Below, piece after piece: positions 55,973 through 64,000 of a stretch of DNA of 64,000 bases. Location: the NCBI GenBank assembly GCA_030584185.1, contig CP129495.1, forward strand, positions 1,469,469 to 1,533,468, given 5' to 3'. How positions within the stretch are numbered: position 1 is the stretch's first letter; the number at the start of each line of letters is the position of its first letter. The position numbers and the translations under genes are program-made. The notes under the pieces were generated by a model that was not told where the DNA came from, did no database searches, and saw only the letters and a program-made list of their open reading frames with translations. This DNA is from Acidimicrobiia bacterium (GTDB lineage: Bacteria; Actinomycetota; Acidimicrobiia; Spongiisociales; UBA11373).

Positions 55973-56656
55973 CTAGCCCTCGGTCGTGCTGCTGCTGCTG
56001 GTGTCCCCGCCGGTCGTGCTGGTGGTCGAGGAGTCGACGGTGCCGCCCTGAGCGACGATTCGGAGGTCGGCGATGGCGTCGAGCACCTGCTGCACCTCGA
56101 CCTTGAACTCCTCCACGGCGGCACGCCGCTGGGTGCCATCGTCGGGGGCCTCCAACCCGAGGACGATGTCCCCCACCTTGGCCGACAGGTCGGACACCTG
56201 GACGATCAGGTCGACGTGGGCCTGAGCCAGGAGGGTGGGCACGCCGGCCACTTCGGTCACCGTGTTCTCCCACTCGTCCAACTGGGTCTGCAGCTCGAGG
56301 AACCTCGTGCGAGCCTGGGCGTAGGTGAGCCCGGTGTTGATCCGGTCCTCCCAGTCGGTGTTCACCTGGAGGACCTGGTCGCGGTATGCGGTCGCCTGGT
56401 TCTCGAACACGTCGACGGTGGCCATGAAGGCTGCGATGTCCGCCGGCAGCGTCGTGGTGGAGCTGGCGGAGTCGGTCGGGAACGGAGGCTCGGCATCGGT
56501 CGTGCCCGTCGGATCCGTTGCCGGTTCCAGCGAGTTCACGAAGGTGTAGGTGAGGATCACCATGGCCGCGATGATCAGCGGCAGGATCCATCGACCGTGT
56601 CTCGGGTCTTCGATCACCATTTCCGGGGAAACGGTAGTCGCCAGTCGGGCATGCAC
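55973..56656 (-). CDS. Hypothetical membrane-anchored protein with a Ser/Thr-rich C-terminus
   Basis: It has a single N-terminal TM (WILPLIIAAMVILTYTF), a coiled-coil-like middle and an STTSTTGGDTSSSSTT tail. I see no recognisable domain. Confidence 0.45.
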   Translation of the reverse strand: MHARLATTVSPEMVIEDPRHGRWILPLIIAAMVILTYTFVNSLEPATDPTGTTDAEPPFPTDSASSTTTLPADIAAFMATVDVFENQATAYRDQVLQVNTDWEDRINTGLTYAQARTRFLELQTQLDEWENTVTEVAGVPTLLAQAHVDLIVQVSDLSAKVGDIVLGLEAPDDGTQRRAAVEEFKVEVQQVLDAIADLRIVAQGGTVDSSTTSTTGGDTSSSSTTEG

Positions 56657-56679: not shown

Positions 56680-57411
56680 GTGACATCCATGGAGCTGCAG
56701 GGTGTCACCGCACTGGTCACCGGGGCCGGTCGTCGGGTCGGTAGGGCCATCGCACTGGGGCTCGCCGGCGCCGGCGCCAACCTGGTGGTCCACTACAACC
56801 GCTCCGCCGACGAGGCGGAGGAGGTGGCCGGCGAGATCCGCAGCCTGGGGGTGGAGGCGACCACCGTAGGCGGCGATCTCGGCGGCGAGGCGGCGGCGGT
56901 GATGGCGGGCGCAGGCCCGCTGGCACCGGTGCGGGTGCTGGTGAACAGCGCCGCATCGTTCCCTGACGACACGCTCATGGACGTGGATCGAGACGGATGG
57001 GACCGGACCTTGGCGGTGAACCTGACCGGTCCCGTGTTCCTCACCCAGGCGTTCGCCGCTGCACTGCCTTCCGACGCCGAGGGGGCGGTGGTCAACATCA
57101 CCGACTGGCGGACCTCTCGGCCTTATCGGGATCACTTCTCCTACACGGTGGCCAAGGGGGCGCTGGACACCTTCACCCTGGCTGCGGCAGAGGCGCTCGC
57201 CCCCCGCATCCGGGTGAACGCCGTCGCCCTGGGTGCCATCCTGCCTCCCCCCGGGCGCGACTCGGCCTACCTCAGGGAACTGGCCCGGGAGATCCCGGTG
57301 CAGCGGGTGGGGGGCACCGAGCCGGTGGTGGCGGCGGTGCTGGCGCTGCTCGCCAACGACTTCATCACCGGGGAGATCCTGCGGGTCGATGGCGGGGCAC
57401 ATCTCAGGTAG
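56680..57411 (+). CDS. SDR-family oxidoreductase (pteridine reductase/FolM-like by context)
   Basis: It has the Rossmann motif TGAGRRVG and the catalytic YxxxK (YTVAKGA). It is immediately upstream of folB-folK-folE. Confidence 0.8.
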   Translation: MTSMELQGVTALVTGAGRRVGRAIALGLAGAGANLVVHYNRSADEAEEVAGEIRSLGVEATTVGGDLGGEAAAVMAGAGPLAPVRVLVNSAASFPDDTLMDVDRDGWDRTLAVNLTGPVFLTQAFAAALPSDAEGAVVNITDWRTSRPYRDHFSYTVAKGALDTFTLAAAEALAPRIRVNAVALGAILPPPGRDSAYLRELAREIPVQRVGGTEPVVAAVLALLANDFITGEILRVDGGAHLR

Positions 57412-57449
57412 CCCGGTGTTGCACGGGCGCCCCCGGTAGCCTCGTCGCC

Positions 57450-57809
57450 ATGGACCGTATCGTGATCCGGGACCTGCTGGTGCGCGGCATCGTGGGGATC
57501 AACCCGGAGGAGCGCAAGAACCGCCAGGACATCGTGGTCAACCTGACCATGTGGGCCGACATCGCCGACGCCGCCCGCAGCGACGACATCGCCGACGCGG
57601 TCAACTACCGGACGGTGGCGAAGCGGATCCTGGAGCACGTCGAGCAGGGATCGCCGATGCTGGTGGAACGTCTCGCCTCGGAGATCGCCGGGATCTGCTT
57701 CGACATGGACGAACGGGTGGCCGAGGTGGAGGTGTCGGTGGAGAAGCCGGGCGCCCTGCGCTTCGCCCGCTCGGTGGGGGTGGTGTTGCGCCGGGAGCGT
57801 CCCCAATGA
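57450..57809 (+). CDS. folB: 7,8-dihydroneopterin aldolase
   Basis: It has the internal start [26 protein letters not shown]. It is 119 aa and its stop overlaps the folK start (ATGA). Confidence 0.9.
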
Positions 57810-58906
57810 CGCGGGCCGTGATCGCCCTGGGGAGCAACGTGGACCCGGACCGCAATCTGCCGGTGGCGCTGGCACGGCTCCGGCATCGCCGCGACCTAGT
57901 GGTCCTGGACCAGAGTCCCTGCTACCGCTCCGAGGCGGTGGGGAGTGACGGTCCCGACTTCATGAACGCCGCAGCCCTGGTGGAGACTCCGCTCGATCCG
58001 GTGCAGCTGCGTTCGGTGCTGCGCTCAATCGAGGCGGAGATGGGCCGGGAGCGCACCGAGGATCGCAACGCCCCCCGTCCCATCGACCTCGACATCGTCC
58101 TCTACGAGGGGTTCGAGGGGGAGATCGAGGGCACCGAGATCCCTGATCCCGACTTGGCCACCCTGGCCCATGTGGCGGTGCCGGCCGCCGATGTCGCTCC
58201 CGACTGGGAATACCCGGGGCCGGGTTCGACCTTGAAAGCCATCTCGGAGAGGTTCCGTCGAGAGATCGAGGTGTGCATGACAACCGGGATCGTCCGCATC
58301 AACGGCCGCTACGCCACCGAGCAGGGGATGGAGGCGACCTCCAACGAGGTCTACGACCCCGAGATGGAGGAGATCGTCGGCCGGATGCTGATCCAGCTCG
58401 GCGAGGACCCGGAGCGCGAGGGCCTGGTGCGCACCCCGTTGCGGGTGGCCAAGGCCATGGACTTCCTCACCAGCGGCTACGTCGGGTCCCTGGAGGAGGT
58501 GGTGAACAACGCCATCTTCGAGAGCGACTCCGACGAGATGGTCCTGGTCAAGGACGTCGAGTTCTACTCGCTGTGCGAGCACCACATGCTGCCGTTCTTC
58601 GGCAGGGCGCACGTCGCCTACATGCCGAACAAGCGGATCATCGGGCTGAGCAAGATCGCCCGGATCGTGGACCTGTTCGCCCGGCGCCTGCAGGTTCAGG
58701 AGCGTCTCACCAATCAGGTGGCCGACGCCATCGAGGAGGTGCTCGACCCCCATGGTGTGGCGGTGGTGATGGAGGGGAGCCACTTCTGCATGATGATGCG
58801 CGGTGTCCAGAAGCAGGGTTCTTCGATGGTGACCTCGGCGATGCGGGGCGGGTTCAAGACCAACCCGCTGTCGCGTTCGGAGTTCATGGGCCTGATCAAG
58901 GCCTGA
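57806..58906 (+). CDS. folK-folE: Bifunctional fusion: 6-hydroxymethyl-7,8-dihydropterin pyrophosphokinase (FolK) + GTP cyclohydrolase I (FolE)
   Basis: It is a single in-frame ORF with no stop. The N-terminal ~158 aa is HPPK ([12 protein letters not shown]...PIDLDIVLY...DWEYPGPG). The C-terminal ~200 aa is GTP-CH-I ([12 protein letters not shown]...CEHHMLPF...[10 protein letters not shown]). I confirmed the junction codon by codon around 58250-58290. Confidence 0.8.
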
Positions 58907-59040: not shown

Positions 59041-59895
59041 ATGCCGGGTATCGACGTCGACGAGCGCGAGGACATGGAGCACGTTCCCTGGGCCGATCTG
59101 ATGGCCCAGGTGGAGCCGGAGGATCGGCGTCGCAAGGCGCTGTATCAGGCCGCCGGGTTTCTGGGGGCGCTGGTGGTGGGGGTGATCGTGGCCCGTTCCT
59201 GGTGGGCGGCCCCGGTGCCGCCGGTTCCGATCGCCCCGGGGACCACGATCGTGCCTGCCGAGGGGTCGGGGGGCACCACGCCGACCCTTCCCCTGTACAG
59301 CGAGGCGGACCTGATGGCCGACCCGCCCGACCCCTCAGCCCGGGCCGCCATCACCAGGGCCGAGTGGTTCGTCACCGACTTCTTCACTGCGGATCTGGAA
59401 CCTTCGGGGTCGGCGGAGGTGCGTGCCGCCCTGCCGGGCTGGGTGACCGCCGATCTGGCCCAGGAGGGGTCGGACTCGGTGTCCTACGTGGAGTGGGCGA
59501 GGGCGTTTCGCGTCGAGGAGGCAGGTGGGGGCCTGTACCGGGTGGCGGTGGCGTTCCGTGCGTTGGGGGCACCTCCGGATCGGGGGTTCACCCGTCTTCC
59601 GGTGCGGGCTGTGGAGGTGCTGGTGGCCGTGGGTGAGGACGGGGGCACCACGGTGGTCGACCTGCCCGAGCCGGTGGCGTTGCCGCCGGGCCCGGAGCCG
59701 GAGGAGCCGGGTTGGGTGGAGGGGTCCCCTCCGCAGTCGGTGGTGGATGCGGTGTCGGCCAGGGCTTCGGTGTGGGGGAGCGAGCCGCGGATCCTGTCGG
59801 CGGTGCATCTCGATGGCGATTGGCGGGTGGTGGTGTCGGTGGCCGACGCCGTGGGCCTGCGCTGGCCGCTGGCGATGCGGGTGGCCGAGGGGTGA
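59041..59895 (+). CDS. Hypothetical membrane-anchored/secreted protein
   Basis: It is a 284-aa ORF with one TM near residue 40 (ALYQAAGFLGALVVGVIV) and no recognisable motif. The GC3 pattern is coding-like. Confidence 0.45.
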   Translation: MPGIDVDEREDMEHVPWADLMAQVEPEDRRRKALYQAAGFLGALVVGVIVARSWWAAPVPPVPIAPGTTIVPAEGSGGTTPTLPLYSEADLMADPPDPSARAAITRAEWFVTDFFTADLEPSGSAEVRAALPGWVTADLAQEGSDSVSYVEWARAFRVEEAGGGLYRVAVAFRALGAPPDRGFTRLPVRAVEVLVAVGEDGGTTVVDLPEPVALPPGPEPEEPGWVEGSPPQSVVDAVSARASVWGSEPRILSAVHLDGDWRVVVSVADAVGLRWPLAMRVAEG

Positions 59896-59900
59896 GGCCC

Positions 59901-60401
59901 TCACACGAACAGCTGCACGTCGGCATCGGCGGCGAAGTCGAGGAAGGCGGCCGCACCTGCGATCTCGCACCCCGGGATCAGGTCCTCCGCCTCGACCCCC
60001 ATCACCCCCATGGTCGTGGCGCAGGCGAAGAAGCGAACCCCGAGGCCCTGGGCCATCTCGATGAACTCGGGTACCTGCGGCATCCGGGACCGCCGCATCC
60101 ACCGCTTGAGCATCCCGGTGGCGCCGGCCGTGGCCCCGGGGAGCGCTCCGAGAAGGGTCGGTACCCGGATGGGGCCCGCCGGGTTCCCCACCGCAGCCGC
60201 CTTCAGCCGGCGATGCCGCTTGGCGTGCAGGATGTCGAGGCCGTGGAAGGTGAAGTACACCCCTGCCTCCCATCCCATGCTGGCGGCCGTGGTGGCCAGG
60301 ATCAGCGGGGGGTAGGCCTGGTCGAGGGTGCCCTTCGACGCCACCAGGGCTATCCGTCTGCGACCGACCGGGCCGCCTTCGCCTGCGGGCTGGTCGACCA
60401 T
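59901..60401 (-). CDS. DsrE/DsrF-like sulfur-relay family protein
   Basis: It has the internal start MVDQPAGEGG, and RIALVASKGTLDQAYPPLILATTAASMG...FFACATTM matches the DsrE_2 family. Its start overlaps the TusA stop (TGATG). Confidence 0.7.
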   Translation of the reverse strand: MVDQPAGEGGPVGRRRIALVASKGTLDQAYPPLILATTAASMGWEAGVYFTFHGLDILHAKRHRRLKAAAVGNPAGPIRVPTLLGALPGATAGATGMLKRWMRRSRMPQVPEFIEMAQGLGVRFFACATTMGVMGVEAEDLIPGCEIAGAAAFLDFAADADVQLFV

Positions 60402-60634
60402 CACGCAGCCCCCTTCTCGATGCGGAACACCTGGGTGTCGCCCCGGTCCTCCGCCGAGACCAGGCGGTCGCCGCGCTGTCGCGCCATCGCCGGGATGTCC
60501 TCGAGGGCCCCGGGGTCGGTGGTGATCAGCTCCAGCACCTCGCCGGGGCTCATCCGGCCGAGCGCCAGTCCCGCCTTGTACACCGGCAGCGGGCACAGCA
60601 GCCCGGAGGCGTCCAGGGTCGTGGTTTCGGTCAT
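60401..60634 (-). CDS. tusA: TusA-like sulfurtransferase (SirA/YedF/YeeD)
   Basis: It is a 77-aa ORF with LDASGLLCPLPVYKAGLAL, containing the CPxP active-site motif. Confidence 0.85.
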   Translation of the reverse strand: MTETTTLDASGLLCPLPVYKAGLALGRMSPGEVLELITTDPGALEDIPAMARQRGDRLVSAEDRGDTQVFRIEKGAA

Positions 60635-60648
60635 GCCTCTCTCTCCTC

Positions 60649-61614
60649 TCATGCGGGGAGACCCTCGTCGCCGAGGAGCTCCGCGAAGTAGCTCGTGTAC
60701 TTGAGGCCGGAGTCGGGGGAGACCCCGACGGCCACCCCCTTGCCGGCCACCCGGGTGGCGGCATGGACGATCGCCCCGGTGGACGGCCCCACCATCAGCC
60801 CCTGCTCCCGCCACAGGCGCAAGGTGGTGGAGTAGGCGGCCTCGTCGTCGACCAGGATCACCTCGTCGACCAGGCTGCGGTCCAGGATCCCGGGCTCGCT
60901 CGCCTCGGCGAAGCTCTTCAGCCCGGGGAGCCGGTGACCCTTCTGCGGCTCTATGGCCACCACCCGGATCGATGGGTCCTGCTCCTTCAGGTACCGCCCC
61001 ACCCCGGTGATGGTCCCGCAGGTTCCGAAGCCGGCCAGGAACACCCGCACCTCGCCTTCGGTCTGCCGCCAGATCTCCGGGCCGGTGGTCTCGTAGTGGG
61101 CGCGCACGTTGTCCGGGTTCTCGTACTGGTTGGGCATGGCGAAACGGGTCCCGCCCTCGGATGCGGCCAGTGACCTGGCCAGGGCGATCGCCCCGTCCTT
61201 GGGATGGTCGACCGGGCACAGGTCGTCGGGCGTGGCCCACACCTCGGCGCCGAGCATCCGCAGCATGATCTGCTTCTCCATCGGCACCCCGTCGGGGATG
61301 GTCACCGTCAGGCGGATTCCCCGCCGCGCCGCCAGGGCGGCCAGAGCGATGGCGGTGTTGCCCGAGGACGGCTCCACCAGCTCCCGACCCGCCAGCTCGC
61401 CACGCTCCTCCATCCCCCGGAGCATGTAGGCGGCGGTGCGGTCCTTGATCGATCCGAACGGGCTCATCCACTCCAGCTTGAGGTGCAGGTCGAGCGTCGC
61501 GTCGATCGGCACCCGCACCAGGGGCGTCGGCTCGTCCCGGCCGGGGAGCAGATCCTCGATCGTCTCGTATCTTCGGACCGTTCGGTCCGTTCCCAACGCC
61601 GTGGTGGTGGTCAT
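60649..61614 (-). CDS. PLP-dependent cysteine synthase family protein (CysM/CysK-like)
   Basis: It has the PLP-lysine motif SIKDR, the glycine loop GTCGTITG, and a fold-type II pattern throughout. It is 321 aa. An RBS GGAGAGG precedes the ATG. Confidence 0.9.
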   Translation of the reverse strand: MTTTTALGTDRTVRRYETIEDLLPGRDEPTPLVRVPIDATLDLHLKLEWMSPFGSIKDRTAAYMLRGMEERGELAGRELVEPSSGNTAIALAALAARRGIRLTVTIPDGVPMEKQIMLRMLGAEVWATPDDLCPVDHPKDGAIALARSLAASEGGTRFAMPNQYENPDNVRAHYETTGPEIWRQTEGEVRVFLAGFGTCGTITGVGRYLKEQDPSIRVVAIEPQKGHRLPGLKSFAEASEPGILDRSLVDEVILVDDEAAYSTTLRLWREQGLMVGPSTGAIVHAATRVAGKGVAVGVSPDSGLKYTSYFAELLGDEGLPA

Positions 61615-61628
61615 GTACTTCCTCTCCA

Positions 61629-61666
61629 GAAAAGAAAAAACCCGCTCCGGTTGCCCGGTGCGGGTT
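61629..61666 (-). terminator. Strong intrinsic terminator hairpin in the 5' leader of the cysM-like gene (candidate attenuator/riboswitch expression platform)
   Basis: The minus-strand RNA reads AACCCGCACCGG-GCAA-CCGGAGCGGGUU, an 11-bp stem with a GNRA loop, followed by UUUUUUCUUUUCU. It ends ~25 nt before the start codon, leaving room only for the RBS. Confidence 0.5.
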
Positions 61667-61852
61667 GGATTCGGCTCTGTCGTCCCGTTCTAGGTGGACA
61701 CGCCCTTCCGCCCGTCACCGGGGTGGCAACAGGCGCAACAGCAGACGGCTGCGGTGAGGTTCGGCATGTTCACGGAGGGCAACTGTAGGGGGTGCCGGCG
61801 CGTGGTCAAGGGGGATTCCTGGTGGCGGGCTAGCCTCGCCGCGGTGCGCCGC

Positions 61853-62101
61853 TCACCCGAAGGTGGTTTCGAGGATTCCCGTCACCTCGGGCACGATCTC
61901 GTCCCAGAACGCCTCGGGCATCTTGGAGACGGTCACGAAGTCGGCAGTCATGAACACCGAGGCGACGCCGGGCACGGAGAGCAGCGGTCCGGCCACGGGG
62001 TCGTCCGACTGTCCGACGAACGACCTGGGGGCGTCGAACATGGTGCCCACGGTGAACTTGAGGGCGTTCGGGTTGGGCGTCTGGCTGATGATCACCGGCA
62101 T
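61853..62101 (-). CDS. Nfu/NifU N-terminal-domain-like small protein
   Basis: It is an 82-aa ORF, and MPVIISQTPNPNALKF...ASVFMTADFVTVSK matches the Nfu_N domain pattern. Confidence 0.7.
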   Translation of the reverse strand: MPVIISQTPNPNALKFTVGTMFDAPRSFVGQSDDPVAGPLLSVPGVASVFMTADFVTVSKMPEAFWDEIVPEVTGILETTFG

Positions 62102-62145
62102 GGTGTGTCTCCCGGGGTGGGCCGGGGCATCGTAGTGGCGGGCCG

Positions 62146-64000
62146 ATGCCGGTAGGGGTCGACGTCGGCGGCACCTTCACCGACGTCGCCTTCTGGGACG
62201 GCGAGACCCTGATCGCCGCCAAGGTCCCGACCACCCCCGACCAGTCCGAAGGGGTGATGTCGGGGATCGCTGTCGCCGGTGCCACCGGCGCCGCACTCAT
62301 CCATGGCACCACGGCGGCGACCAACGCCGTCCTCGAGCGGGCCGGGGCCAGGGTGGCGTTCGTCGCCGACGAGGGTTTCGAAAACCTGATCGAGATCGGC
62401 CGGCAGGATCGCCCGTCGCTTTACGACACGGCGGTCACCCGACCCGAGCCGCTGGTCCCGGCGCAGATGCGCTTCGGTGCCCCCGGCCGGGCGGCGGCGG
62501 ACGATCCCGGTGTCGTCGGCGACCTCGACGCCCTGGTGGAGGCGGTTCGGGAGGCCGGACCGGAGGCGGTCGCAGTGTCGCTGCTGTTCGGCTTCGCCCA
62601 CCCCCAGCGGGAGCGCCGGGTGGCCGAGGCCCTCCGGGAGGCACTGGGGGAGGTTCCGGTTTCGCTTTCCTCCGATGTCGCCCCGGAGGTCCGGGAGTTC
62701 GAACGCGCCTCGACGACCATCCTCAACTCCTACGTGGCCCCGGCGACGTGGCGCTATCTGCGGCGGCTCGCCGATCTGGTGACGGCGGCCGGCGCCACTG
62801 CGGAGCCGATGGTGATGCGCAGCAGCGGCGGGCTGATCGGCATGGCGGAGGCGTCCCGCCTGCCCGCTTCGATCCTGCTCTCTGGACCCGCCGGCGGTGT
62901 GGTGGCGGCTGCGGCCCTGGGCGATGCGCTCGGCCTGGGGACCCTGATCTCGTTCGACATGGGCGGCACTTCCACCGACGTGTGCCGTATCGAAGGTGGC
63001 CGGCCCGGGGTCGCCTACCGGCGGGCCATGGCCGGGTACGCCTGCACGCTGCCCTCGGTGGCCATCCACACCGTCGGCGCCGGTGGCGGGAGCATCGGGT
63101 GGATCGACCCCGGCGGCGCACTCAGGGTGGGGCCGGCGAGCGCCGGGGCCGATCCGGGACCTGCGGCTTACGGGCGGGGCGGCACCCTGCCGACCGTGAC
63201 CGACGCCGACCTCCGGATCGGGCGCCTGGGAGCGGGCACCAGGCTCGCCGGAACCCTCGCCCTCGACGCCGCTGCCGCCACCCGGTCGCTGGATGCCGTG
63301 GGCGGGCTGCTCGGGATCGGCGCTTTGGAAGTGGCAGCGGGGATGGTCGAGGTGGTCGAAGCCCACATGGAGCGCGCCGTGCGCCGGGTGTCGGTGGAGG
63401 AGGGCGCCGATCCGAGAGGTGCCTCGCTGATGGCATTCGGTGGCGCCGGCGGGCTGCACGCCACCGCCCTGGCACGCCGGCTCGGCATGGGGTCGGTTGT
63501 GATCCCGCCGCACGCCGGGGTGTTCTCGGCACTCGGCCTGCTTCTCGCCCCGCCCCGAGTGGATCTGTCGCGCAGCGTGGTTCTCGACGGGATGGCCGGA
63601 CTCGATCAGGCGTTGGGCGAGATCGCCGACGCCGCCCGGAGAGCGCTGCCGTGCGCCCGGGTGGAGGCGTACGTCGACCTCCGCTACCGGGGGCAGTCGC
63701 ACGAGACGACCGTGGTGGCTTCGCTCGGGGAGAGCCGGGAGGCACTCCTCGAACGCTTCCATGAGGCGCATCAGCGGCTCAACGGATTCTCGATGCCCGG
63801 TGAGCCGGTGGAGGTGGTGACGGTGCGGGCGGAGGCGACCGGCACCCCGGCCCTCGACTGGGAGCGGATCCCTCCCCCGGTTCCCGAGGGTGAGGCGGCC
63901 GCCGGGTGGCGGACGGTGCTGCTGGACGGATCATCGGTGGAGGCGTCGGTGTGGCGCCGTCCGGGGCTCCGTCCGGGTGACGCCGTGGTCGGCCCGGCGG
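62146..64000 (+). CDS. Hydantoinase/oxoprolinase family protein, HyuA-like (N-methylhydantoinase A), 3' partial at the window end
   Basis: It is absent from the ORF track because no stop occurs before the end of the window. The ATG at 62146 gives MPVGVDVGGTFTDVAFWDGE... and later DMGGTSTD, which are typical of Hydantoinase_A. The frame stays open to 64000. Confidence 0.85.
   Translation, partial: MPVGVDVGGTFTDVAFWDGETLIAAKVPTTPDQSEGVMSGIAVAGATGAALIHGTTAATNAVLERAGARVAFVADEGFENLIEIGRQDRPSLYDTAVTRPEPLVPAQMRFGAPGRAAADDPGVVGDLDALVEAVREAGPEAVAVSLLFGFAHPQRERRVAEALREALGEVPVSLSSDVAPEVREFERASTTILNSYVAPATWRYLRRLADLVTAAGATAEPMVMRSSGGLIGMAEASRLPASILLSGPAGGVVAAAALGDALGLGTLISFDMGGTSTDVCRIEGGRPGVAYRRAMAGYACTLPSVAIHTVGAGGGSIGWIDPGGALRVGPASAGADPGPAAYGRGGTLPTVTDADLRIGRLGAGTRLAGTLALDAAAATRSLDAVGGLLGIGALEVAAGMVEVVEAHMERAVRRVSVEEGADPRGASLMAFGGAGGLHATALARRLGMGSVVIPPHAGVFSALGLLLAPPRVDLSRSVVLDGMAGLDQALGEIADAARRALPCARVEAYVDLRYRGQSHETTVVASLGESREALLERFHEAHQRLNGFSMPGEPVEVVTVRAEATGTPALDWERIPPPVPEGEAAAGWRTVLLDGSSVEASVWRRPGLRPGDAVVGPA

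Follow-up and report, generated by a model that had tools for sequence, protein, structure and literature searches.

A predicted cysteine-responsive transcription attenuator with a polycysteine leader peptide upstream of a cysM-tusA-dsrE2 operon in Acidimicrobiia

Leader-peptide attenuation is textbook knowledge for tryptophan, histidine, leucine, threonine, phenylalanine and isoleucine/valine. Canestrari et al. (2020; bioRxiv 10.1101/834739; Mol Microbiol 114:93) stated that attenuation mediated by an upstream open reading frame (uORF) had not previously been described for cysteine, and reported that Ms5788A, a leaderless polycysteine short open reading frame (sORF), is cysteine-responsive and acts translationally by unmasking a Shine-Dalgarno (SD) sequence; the mechanism of the remaining mycobacterial sORFs was left open. 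An earlier survey listed actinobacterial Cys leader peptides “without obvious terminators” (Seliverstov et al., 2005; PMC1262725), Brewer et al. (2021; PMC8632094) described the uORFC-8-2 motif of cysS in Rhodobacterales, in which a predicted Cys-Cys uORF is combined with an intrinsic terminator, and a 2026 paper on M. tuberculosis (PMC13236596) still refers to the cysteine genes as translation-attenuated. Here we analyze the leader of a cysM-tusA-dsrE2 operon in a stretch of 64,000 nucleotides (nt) from an Acidimicrobiia bacterium (contig CP129495.1, positions 1,469,469 to 1,533,468; the window). On evidence that is computational throughout (sequence comparison, folding and family scans), this leader is probably a ribosome-mediated transcription attenuator that contains a leader peptide and responds to cysteine via Cys-tRNA. 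The elements of such an attenuator exist at the locus, are conserved, lie at mutually consistent positions and can form alternative pairings.

The genes concerned are all located on the minus strand. A gene with an Nfu_N domain (Pfam; 61853..62101), which is the upstream neighbour and lies outside the conserved unit, is followed by an intergenic gap of 238 nt (61852..61615) that constitutes the leader region. Downstream of the gap are a gene of the pyridoxal phosphate-dependent cysteine-synthase family, CysK/CysM-like (60649..61614; 321 amino acids; Pfam PALP, E 7e-64), a gene for a TusA-family sulfur carrier with a CPxP motif (CPLP) (60401..60634; 77 amino acids; Pfam TusA, E 2e-20) and a DsrE2-like gene (59901..60401; 166 amino acids; Pfam DrsE_2, E 7e-40), whose ATG has one base in common with the TusA stop codon (TGATG). 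A preliminary description of the stretch had put about 240 nt between the Nfu-like and the cysteine-synthase-like gene and had recognized the coupled trio of cysM-like, TusA and DsrE-like genes, both of which are borne out by the coordinates and the Pfam assignments.

Within the leader we found an sORF of 27 codons (61690..61773, minus strand) that starts with GTG (61773) AAC ATG (61767), ends with TAG (61692-61690) and would encode the peptide (V/M)NMPNLTAAVCCCACCHPGDGRKGVST. It reads GTG AAC ATG CCG AAC CUC ACC GCA GCC GUC, continues with the Cys run UGC UGU UGC GCC UGU UGC, and after this run with CAC CCC GGU GAC GGG CGG AAG GGC GUG UCC ACC UAG. The Cys run, hereafter region 1, comprises five Cys in six codons (codons 11-16; 61726..61743, minus strand; CCC-A-CC). 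The leader thereby shows one trait of the polycysteine sORF class, two or more Cys codons in succession ahead of a cysteine-related operon, and its codon run matches the amino acid of an operon whose first gene belongs to the cysteine-synthase family. Cys accounts for ~0.9% of the codons in the long open reading frames (ORFs) of the window, and stop-free stretches with at least four Cys in six codons occur just twice in the 64 kb, once as the leader sORF. The second stretch (SCCCCWC; 55973..56040, plus strand) is an artefact, being the antisense of a poly-Ser/Thr C-terminus encoded by the minus-strand ORF 55973..56656. In the related loci described below, frames of this kind occur at ~0.018 per 450 nt with the true cases counted.

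Orthologues of the cysM-like gene were collected from one genome per GTDB species, which yielded 80 loci with 56-82% identity, the nearest from an Acidimicrobiia metagenome-assembled genome (MAG). The preliminary description had proposed to look for conservation of the leader upstream of orthologous operons, and the same layout indeed recurs in 21 of the loci, where a polycysteine sORF with 3-6 Cys in six codons is located 130-300 nt upstream of the same gene. Most of these 21 loci come from Acidimicrobiia/Actinomycetota MAGs; two others bear the label Acidobacteriota and one is unclassified. The leader peptides of the 21 loci include MITDTRPMSSCCCCCCHPAGAERKRVVI, MKTYPTATCTCCCTTVSCGEVGV, MKRPLTSAAMCCCCCANAARGGS and MNFATCLCCCCPGANPRGECRA. 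Together with the window they form the set of 22 leaders on which the leader statistics are based. The polycysteine sORF is absent from the orthologous loci of Planctomycetota, Verrucomicrobiota and deltaproteobacteria, and in the sORF-negative loci that were inspected the gene lies directly 3' of another sulfur-related or cofactor gene. A CCC at -60 in the deltaproteobacterial locus L075 was rejected as a leader; it is found ~10 nt past the end of the upstream gene, before the cysM start, and sister loci do not have it. An Nfu gene is present upstream in none of the 80 orthologues of the genome collection and was found only in a 98%-identical strain, whose substitutions spare the Cys run, region 2 (see below) and both terminator arms. 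Since the upstream genes differ among the loci, the module of sORF and hairpin is, as judged by this comparison, associated with cysM and not with nfu. One Acidimicrobiia locus (L014:2670-3000) carries cysM-tusA-dsrE2 and lacks the polycysteine sORF; two tandem copies of an element of ~115 nt are found upstream, beside a sequence resembling a tRNA 3' end (GGTTCGAGTCCCC...), which suggests that this leader was replaced through insertion or rearrangement.

A sigma70-like scan identified a -35-like hexamer TTGACC (61804..61809, minus strand) and a -10-like hexamer TACAGT (61782..61787, minus strand), the latter 8 nt upstream of the sORF GTG. TTGACC-16-TACAGT is the sole sigma70-like site in 59500..62600 (3.1 kb), in which 0.1 are expected from shuffled sequences. 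A match of at least 5/6 to TTGACA with 16-17 nt spacing is present in 7 of the 22 leaders, including the window, while a TAnnnT hexamer 6-10 nt ahead of the sORF start is found in 21 of 22 (20 of the 21 relatives and the window), compared with 2.4% when every ATG of these loci is scored (hexamer 5-11 nt upstream). An SD-like motif ahead of the sORF start is absent from all 22 leaders. Because the start is located 8 nt past the -10 hexamer and no SD precedes it, the window sORF is probably leaderless; in an alignment with the relatives of 82% and 85% identity, its GTG stands opposite their ATG. With respect to codon choice, the 22 sORFs contain 63 UGU vs 42 UGC codons (60% UGU; ~24% in the window's long ORFs, which are GC-rich at third codon positions), an excess that is confounded by GC content and RNA pairing and for which slower decoding or constraints from pairing are possible reasons. 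For the window sORF by itself, 2/5 are UGU, which is not significant (p = 0.36).

The leader ends with the hairpin AACCCGCaCCGG-GCAA-CCGGaGCGGGUU (61639..61666, minus strand; ΔG -20.6 kcal/mol), the two arms of which are referred to as regions 3 and 4. Its stem comprises 11 base pairs with a single A/A mismatch and is capped by a GNRA loop. It is followed by the U-rich tail UUUUCUUUU (61630..61638, minus strand), U6CU4 when two U's of the stem are counted, and by the SD sequence GGAGAGG of the cysM-like gene (61621..61627, minus strand), and 24 nt separate the end of the stem from the ATG. A simple terminator scan did not call the window hairpin because of the internal A/A mismatch. In the preliminary description, an 11-base-pair GNRA hairpin with U-tract and the ribosome binding site GGAGAGG had been placed ~25 nt from the ATG, the promoter had been argued to lie necessarily upstream of the hairpin, and read-through control at the hairpin had been deduced. 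The hairpin was found as described, a candidate promoter site is present at 61809..61782, and read-through control is in line with the linkage of the terminator to the sORF: a hairpin with ΔG ≤ -15 and a U-rich tail, ≤200 nt upstream of the gene, is present in 21/21 sORF-positive loci vs 3/57 sORF-negative loci. On this reading, the window hairpin would act as a terminator whose read-through is regulated.

A hairpin (ΔG -15 to -27) with a U-rich tail comes after the sORF in every one of the 22 leaders. Counted from the sORF stop codon, the hairpin begins after 22-39 nt in all leaders except L010, where the value is 58 nt and refers to the second of two tandem hairpins. Both loci labelled Acidobacteriota (L010:2755-2947 and L043:1139-1306) have a polycysteine sORF followed by two tandem terminators of hairpin and U-tract; the L043 leader is ~300 nt away from the gene. 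The terminator consensus in the relatives is ACCCGC...GCGGGU with an invariant core CCGC/GCGG, and the 85%-identical relative has the stem GCCCGC...GCGGGC. An analysis with MAFFT/RNAalifold gave a double change in 1/8 pairs of the terminator, in an alignment that was off by 1-2 columns between subgroups, and a stem-anchored pair table was used in its place. According to this table, the flanking stem pairs show compensatory changes at three positions (AU/GC/UA, CG/UA and CG/GC). That CCCGC in the 5' arm does not vary would suit a strand obliged to pair with two partners.

The second partner is a candidate antiterminator strand within the 3' part of the sORF. This region 2, CCCGGUGaCGGG (61711..61722, minus strand), is complementary to the terminator 5' arm, and the stretch CCGGUGACGGG within it at 61721..61711, just past the Cys run, can pair either with the Cys codons or with that arm. 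The 1:2 hairpin, formed by CGCCUGUUGCC (the last Cys codons) and GGUGACGGGCG (61709..61735, minus strand), would sequester region 2 when no ribosome occupies the Cys codons. The energies of the alternatives in the window are comparable (1:2, -18.8 kcal/mol; 2:3 duplex, -22.5 kcal/mol; 3:4, -20.6 kcal/mol). A segment complementary to the 5' arm that starts ≤~15 nt past the Cys run is present in 22/22 leaders (ΔG -8.6 to -23.5), and the complementarity of regions 2 and 3 has a mean z of -1.84 relative to dinucleotide shuffles. To model the switch, the nascent RNA without the 3' arm was folded in three states: ribosome-free, with the ribosome stalled on the first Cys codon, and with the ribosome at the stop codon. 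For the window, 0 nt of the 5' arm were paired upstream in the free state, 10 in the stalled state (10/12 nt, with 61721..61711) and 0 at the stop codon, the arm being unpaired without a ribosome because region 1 occupies region 2. Averaged across the set of 22, the paired fraction of the 5' arm was 0.39 free, 0.76 stalled and 0.34 at the stop codon. The folds thus predict an antiterminator that is exclusive with the terminator and depends on the position of the ribosome.

The transcription start site, the translation of the sORF, the termination event and the response to cysteine are those that we infer from these elements, and the mechanism would proceed as follows. Transcription would begin at or beside GTG 61773 from TTGACC-16-TACAGT, and a 70S ribosome would begin the 27-codon sORF in leaderless fashion. 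With ample Cys-tRNA(Cys), translation would proceed to the stop codon, and region 1 would pair with region 2 (GGUGACGGGC) behind the ribosome; this would leave region 3 free to pair with region 4, and the hairpin and U-tract would end the transcript 24 nt before the cysM-like ATG. When charged tRNA(Cys) is scarce, the ribosome would stall on the first Cys codons and cover region 1, so that region 2 would pair with the emerging terminator 5' arm, no terminator would form and the polymerase would enter cysM-tusA-dsrE2. If the sORF is not translated, both 1:2 and 3:4 would form, which makes OFF the default state.

Several observations weigh against this mechanism. The 2:3 pairing is only moderately above that of GC-rich shuffles, with single-locus z values from -0.02 to -4.2, and the leader as a whole is not unusually stable (z of the minimum free energy (MFE), -0.98, an uninformative value). 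The terminator core is near-invariant, which confines covariation support to a few positions, and the 22 leaders are mutually related and hence non-independent observations. In addition, when the full transcript is folded to equilibrium under the stall mask, the terminator is retained in the window and likewise in roughly two thirds of the loci. As the terminator persists at equilibrium, the switch would have to be kinetic and co-transcriptional, and the nascent folds were used instead. Finally, Ms5788A, the sole polycysteine sORF to have been characterized, controls translation rather than termination.

This last point also speaks for a different output, in which the polycysteine sORF senses cysteine and acts by translational attenuation through SD masking or by Rho-dependent polarity, while the hairpin is minor or stabilizes the RNA. 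The 2005 survey proposed Rho-dependent termination for actinobacterial Cys leader peptides, and in the window MFE structure the SD (61627..61621) is paired with CCUCaCC (61759..61753) near the 5' end of the sORF with a pairing probability of ~0.9. However, the best duplex between the SD and the leader (-11.9) is not better than those of shuffled sequences (z +0.56), is not conserved in the closest relatives and does not involve the Cys tract. No other SD-sequestering complement in the leader exceeded the shuffled level, nor does the Cys tract of the window leader sequester the downstream SD as it does in Ms5788A, and we rejected SD sequestration of that type. A distance of 40-80 nt separates hairpin and start codon in most loci, which prevents the hairpin from masking the SD, and a U-rich tail, needed for termination only, follows the hairpin in 22/22 leaders. 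We consider this output unlikely. The pairing of the SD with CCUCaCC is probably fortuitous, but could add a small translational component in this strain. It is very improbable, in turn, that the hairpin is merely the terminator of the nfu-like gene, with an unregulated cysM-like promoter and a coincidental Cys-rich ORF. No other terminator is found past the nfu stop codon, nfu transcripts probably also end at the hairpin, and a double duty for nfu and cysM is plausible. However, the 24 nt between the hairpin and the ATG are filled by the U-tract and the SD and leave no space for a promoter, the promoter-like site is upstream of the sORF, and the module of sORF and hairpin accompanies cysM in 21 loci that lack nfu and differ in their upstream genes. 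At the level of sequence, these comparative data contradict a function limited to nfu.

A metabolite riboswitch, for S-adenosylmethionine (SAM) or another sulfur metabolite, or a T-box with the terminator as expression platform would be in keeping with the terminator-type leaders that are common on Gram-positive sulfur genes. This was the lead of the preliminary description, with a SAM-type switch as the favoured example. The Infernal/Rfam search that it called for, run on 61300..62300 at E ≤ 10, returned no riboswitch or T-box but only microRNA, long noncoding RNA and small RNA noise, and no family reached its Rfam gathering score in 13 orthologous loci and 8 further related leaders. The strings GGCAACC and GGCACC, which had been likened to SAM cores, are present; they belong to the terminator loop (GGGCAACCGG) and the promoter spacer and are not aptamer cores. 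All conserved positions can be assigned to the promoter, start codon, Cys codons, region 2 or terminator, and just 22-39 poorly conserved nt separate the sORF stop codon from the terminator. Based on the scans of the window and the 21 related loci the riboswitch and T-box explanation was rejected, and we regard it as extremely unlikely. The leader-peptide attenuator, which had been listed among the options as well, is the one for which a polycysteine sORF, a predicted terminator and a candidate antiterminator were found. The sORF might instead encode a functional Cys-rich micropeptide (metal-binding, redox-active or resembling a ribosomally synthesized and post-translationally modified peptide) that is co-transcribed with the operon and is not a sensor. 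In favor of this, Canestrari et al. considered that conserved non-Cys residues might mean peptide function, and subgroups of the leaders have common C-terminal motifs such as AARGGS. Outside the Cys run, however, the peptides are completely different between subgroups, the conserved C-terminal motifs overlap the G-rich part of the RNA, the pairing partner of the terminator arm, ten leader peptides gave no NCBIfam match, and the same design precedes three different sulfur-assimilation genes (see below). A micropeptide without sensor function is thus highly unlikely.

The cysteine specificity of the predicted attenuator also bears on the genes that it would control. The cysM-like protein scores below the curated NCBIfam cut-offs for cysKM (258 vs 344), cysK (237 vs 351) and cysM (230 vs 394), and the DsrE2-like protein, with 137 bits for NCBIfam DsrE2, remains under the cut-off of 210. 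The solved structures nearest to the cysM-like protein are O-acetylserine sulfhydrylases (1ve1, 2jc3 (CysM) and 2q3b), and by sequence and family assignment the protein is a PALP-fold member of the cysteine-synthase superfamily. A TusA gene is located 3' of the cysM-like gene in ~25 loci among the orthologues of the genome collection; cysM-tusA-dsrE2 is kept in 18 loci and cysM-tusA without the third gene in 7 further loci. CysM makes S-sulfocysteine from thiosulfate, and the TusA-family protein YeeD and DsrE3/TusA are thiosulfonate/persulfide carriers (PMC11073785). A carrier-mediated route of sulfur from TusA and DsrE2 to the cysteine-synthase homologue would be compatible with our data. Since the predicted attenuator on the operon is cysteine-specific, it would argue that the operon product raises the cysteine supply. 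This would fit, and indirectly favor, the suggestion in the preliminary description of a persulfide- or thiocarboxylate-dependent route.

Two further features of the window were noted. Divergent from the Nfu gene, a gene of the hydantoinase/oxoprolinase family (62155..64000, plus strand) runs off the end of the window; its N-terminus, MPVGVDVGGTFTDV..., was read by eye, and the domains Hydant_A_N and Hydantoinase_A were called on the 98%-identical contig L201. A folate/pterin-like cluster (56680..58906, plus strand) comprises short-chain dehydrogenase, FolB-, FolK- and GTP cyclohydrolase I-like genes, again judged by eye from the translations.

The occurrence of this arrangement in metagenomes was assessed with a loose pattern in which a Cys run and ACCCGC...GCGGGU are separated by a spacer. 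Of the 80 loci obtained, ~85% were chance matches, and only loci that passed the filters for hairpin, U-tail, stop codon and Cys were used. Among these, a polycysteine sORF with hairpin and U-tail precedes NIR_SIR sulfite/nitrite reductase genes in L082, L095 and L099 and a phosphoadenosine phosphosulfate (PAPS) reductase gene (CysH; PAPS_reduct) in L105; the downstream frame of L122 has a NIR_SIR N-terminal motif and was recognized by this motif alone. The contigs are unrelated and originate from soil and sediment; the sORFs look leaderless and encode peptides with up to 10 Cys (for example MILCCQNSCCSCCCGCCCAPITSGAGKVV and MDSCTRIKNCLPCACCCRSHGWHGCLQSD), and the leaders gave no Rfam family match. 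These leaders suggest a multi-operon cysteine attenuation network in uncultured bacteria. More tentatively, with a likelihood that we place somewhat short of even, leaderless units of polycysteine sORF and terminator may represent a widespread, uncatalogued class of Cys-tRNA sensors (“Cys attenuon”) that serves several sulfur operons in bacteria of soil and sediment, uncultured Acidimicrobiia among them, with TusA/DsrE2 marking an assimilatory route that hands persulfide or thiosulfonate sulfur to a CysM-like enzyme.

The record of cysteine attenuation is thin, and the window element would supply its missing classical form, with four pairing regions and a U-tract terminator. The leader element is conserved across many uncultured Acidimicrobiia and is not in Rfam or NCBIfam. 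From it, annotators would gain a simple signature for an unannotated gene together with a regulatory RNA. It may also be of use as a compact cysteine-responsive part for high-GC hosts. For the ambiguous trio of cysM-like, TusA and DsrE2 genes, the cysteine-specific signal would provide an assignment to cysteine biosynthesis, and protein-mediated sulfur delivery to a CysM-type enzyme becomes directly testable.

Compared with the known systems, the predicted attenuator combines features of several. SAM-I and SAM-IV riboswitches on actinobacterial sulfur genes likewise occupy the 5' leaders of sulfur operons, some with a terminator platform, whereas the leader described here has no aptamer and its sensor would be a translated ORF. 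With uORFC-8-2 it has in common the prediction of a ribosome-mediated attenuator, tandem Cys codons within a stem and an intrinsic terminator. That motif, however, occurs in Alphaproteobacteria on a cysteinyl-tRNA synthetase gene, is limited to two Cys codons, is built differently, and showed no sequence or structure match to the window leader in the Rfam scans. As in E. coli trpL, Salmonella hisL and the actinobacterial trp and ilvB attenuators, codons for the end product are combined with exclusive 1:2, 2:3 and 3:4 pairings and an intrinsic terminator before the first structural gene, and the state without translation would be OFF. The difference from these attenuators is that cysteine would be sensed and that the sORF is apparently leaderless and not SD-led. 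The mycobacterial sORFs (Ms5788A, Rv2334A and others) are likewise unannotated, start at or near the transcription start site (here a predicted one) without an SD, and carry consecutive Cys codons in cis upstream of cysteine or sulfur operons in Actinomycetota, with ribosome stalling as the proposed sensor. In Ms5788A, however, the sORF carries its Cys tract at the 3' end, where the tract pairs with the SD of the next gene, and there is no terminator, whereas in the window leader 11 more codons, which hold the putative antiterminator strand, come after the Cys tract and precede a hairpin and a U-tract. The window sORF also differs from the mycobacterial ones in belonging to the class Acidimicrobiia and to a cysM-tusA-dsrE2 operon and in that its peptides match no curated family. 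What is new here is thus an actinobacterial polycysteine sORF, apparently leaderless, that is joined to a complete set of classical terminator and antiterminator elements, in another class and ahead of another operon.

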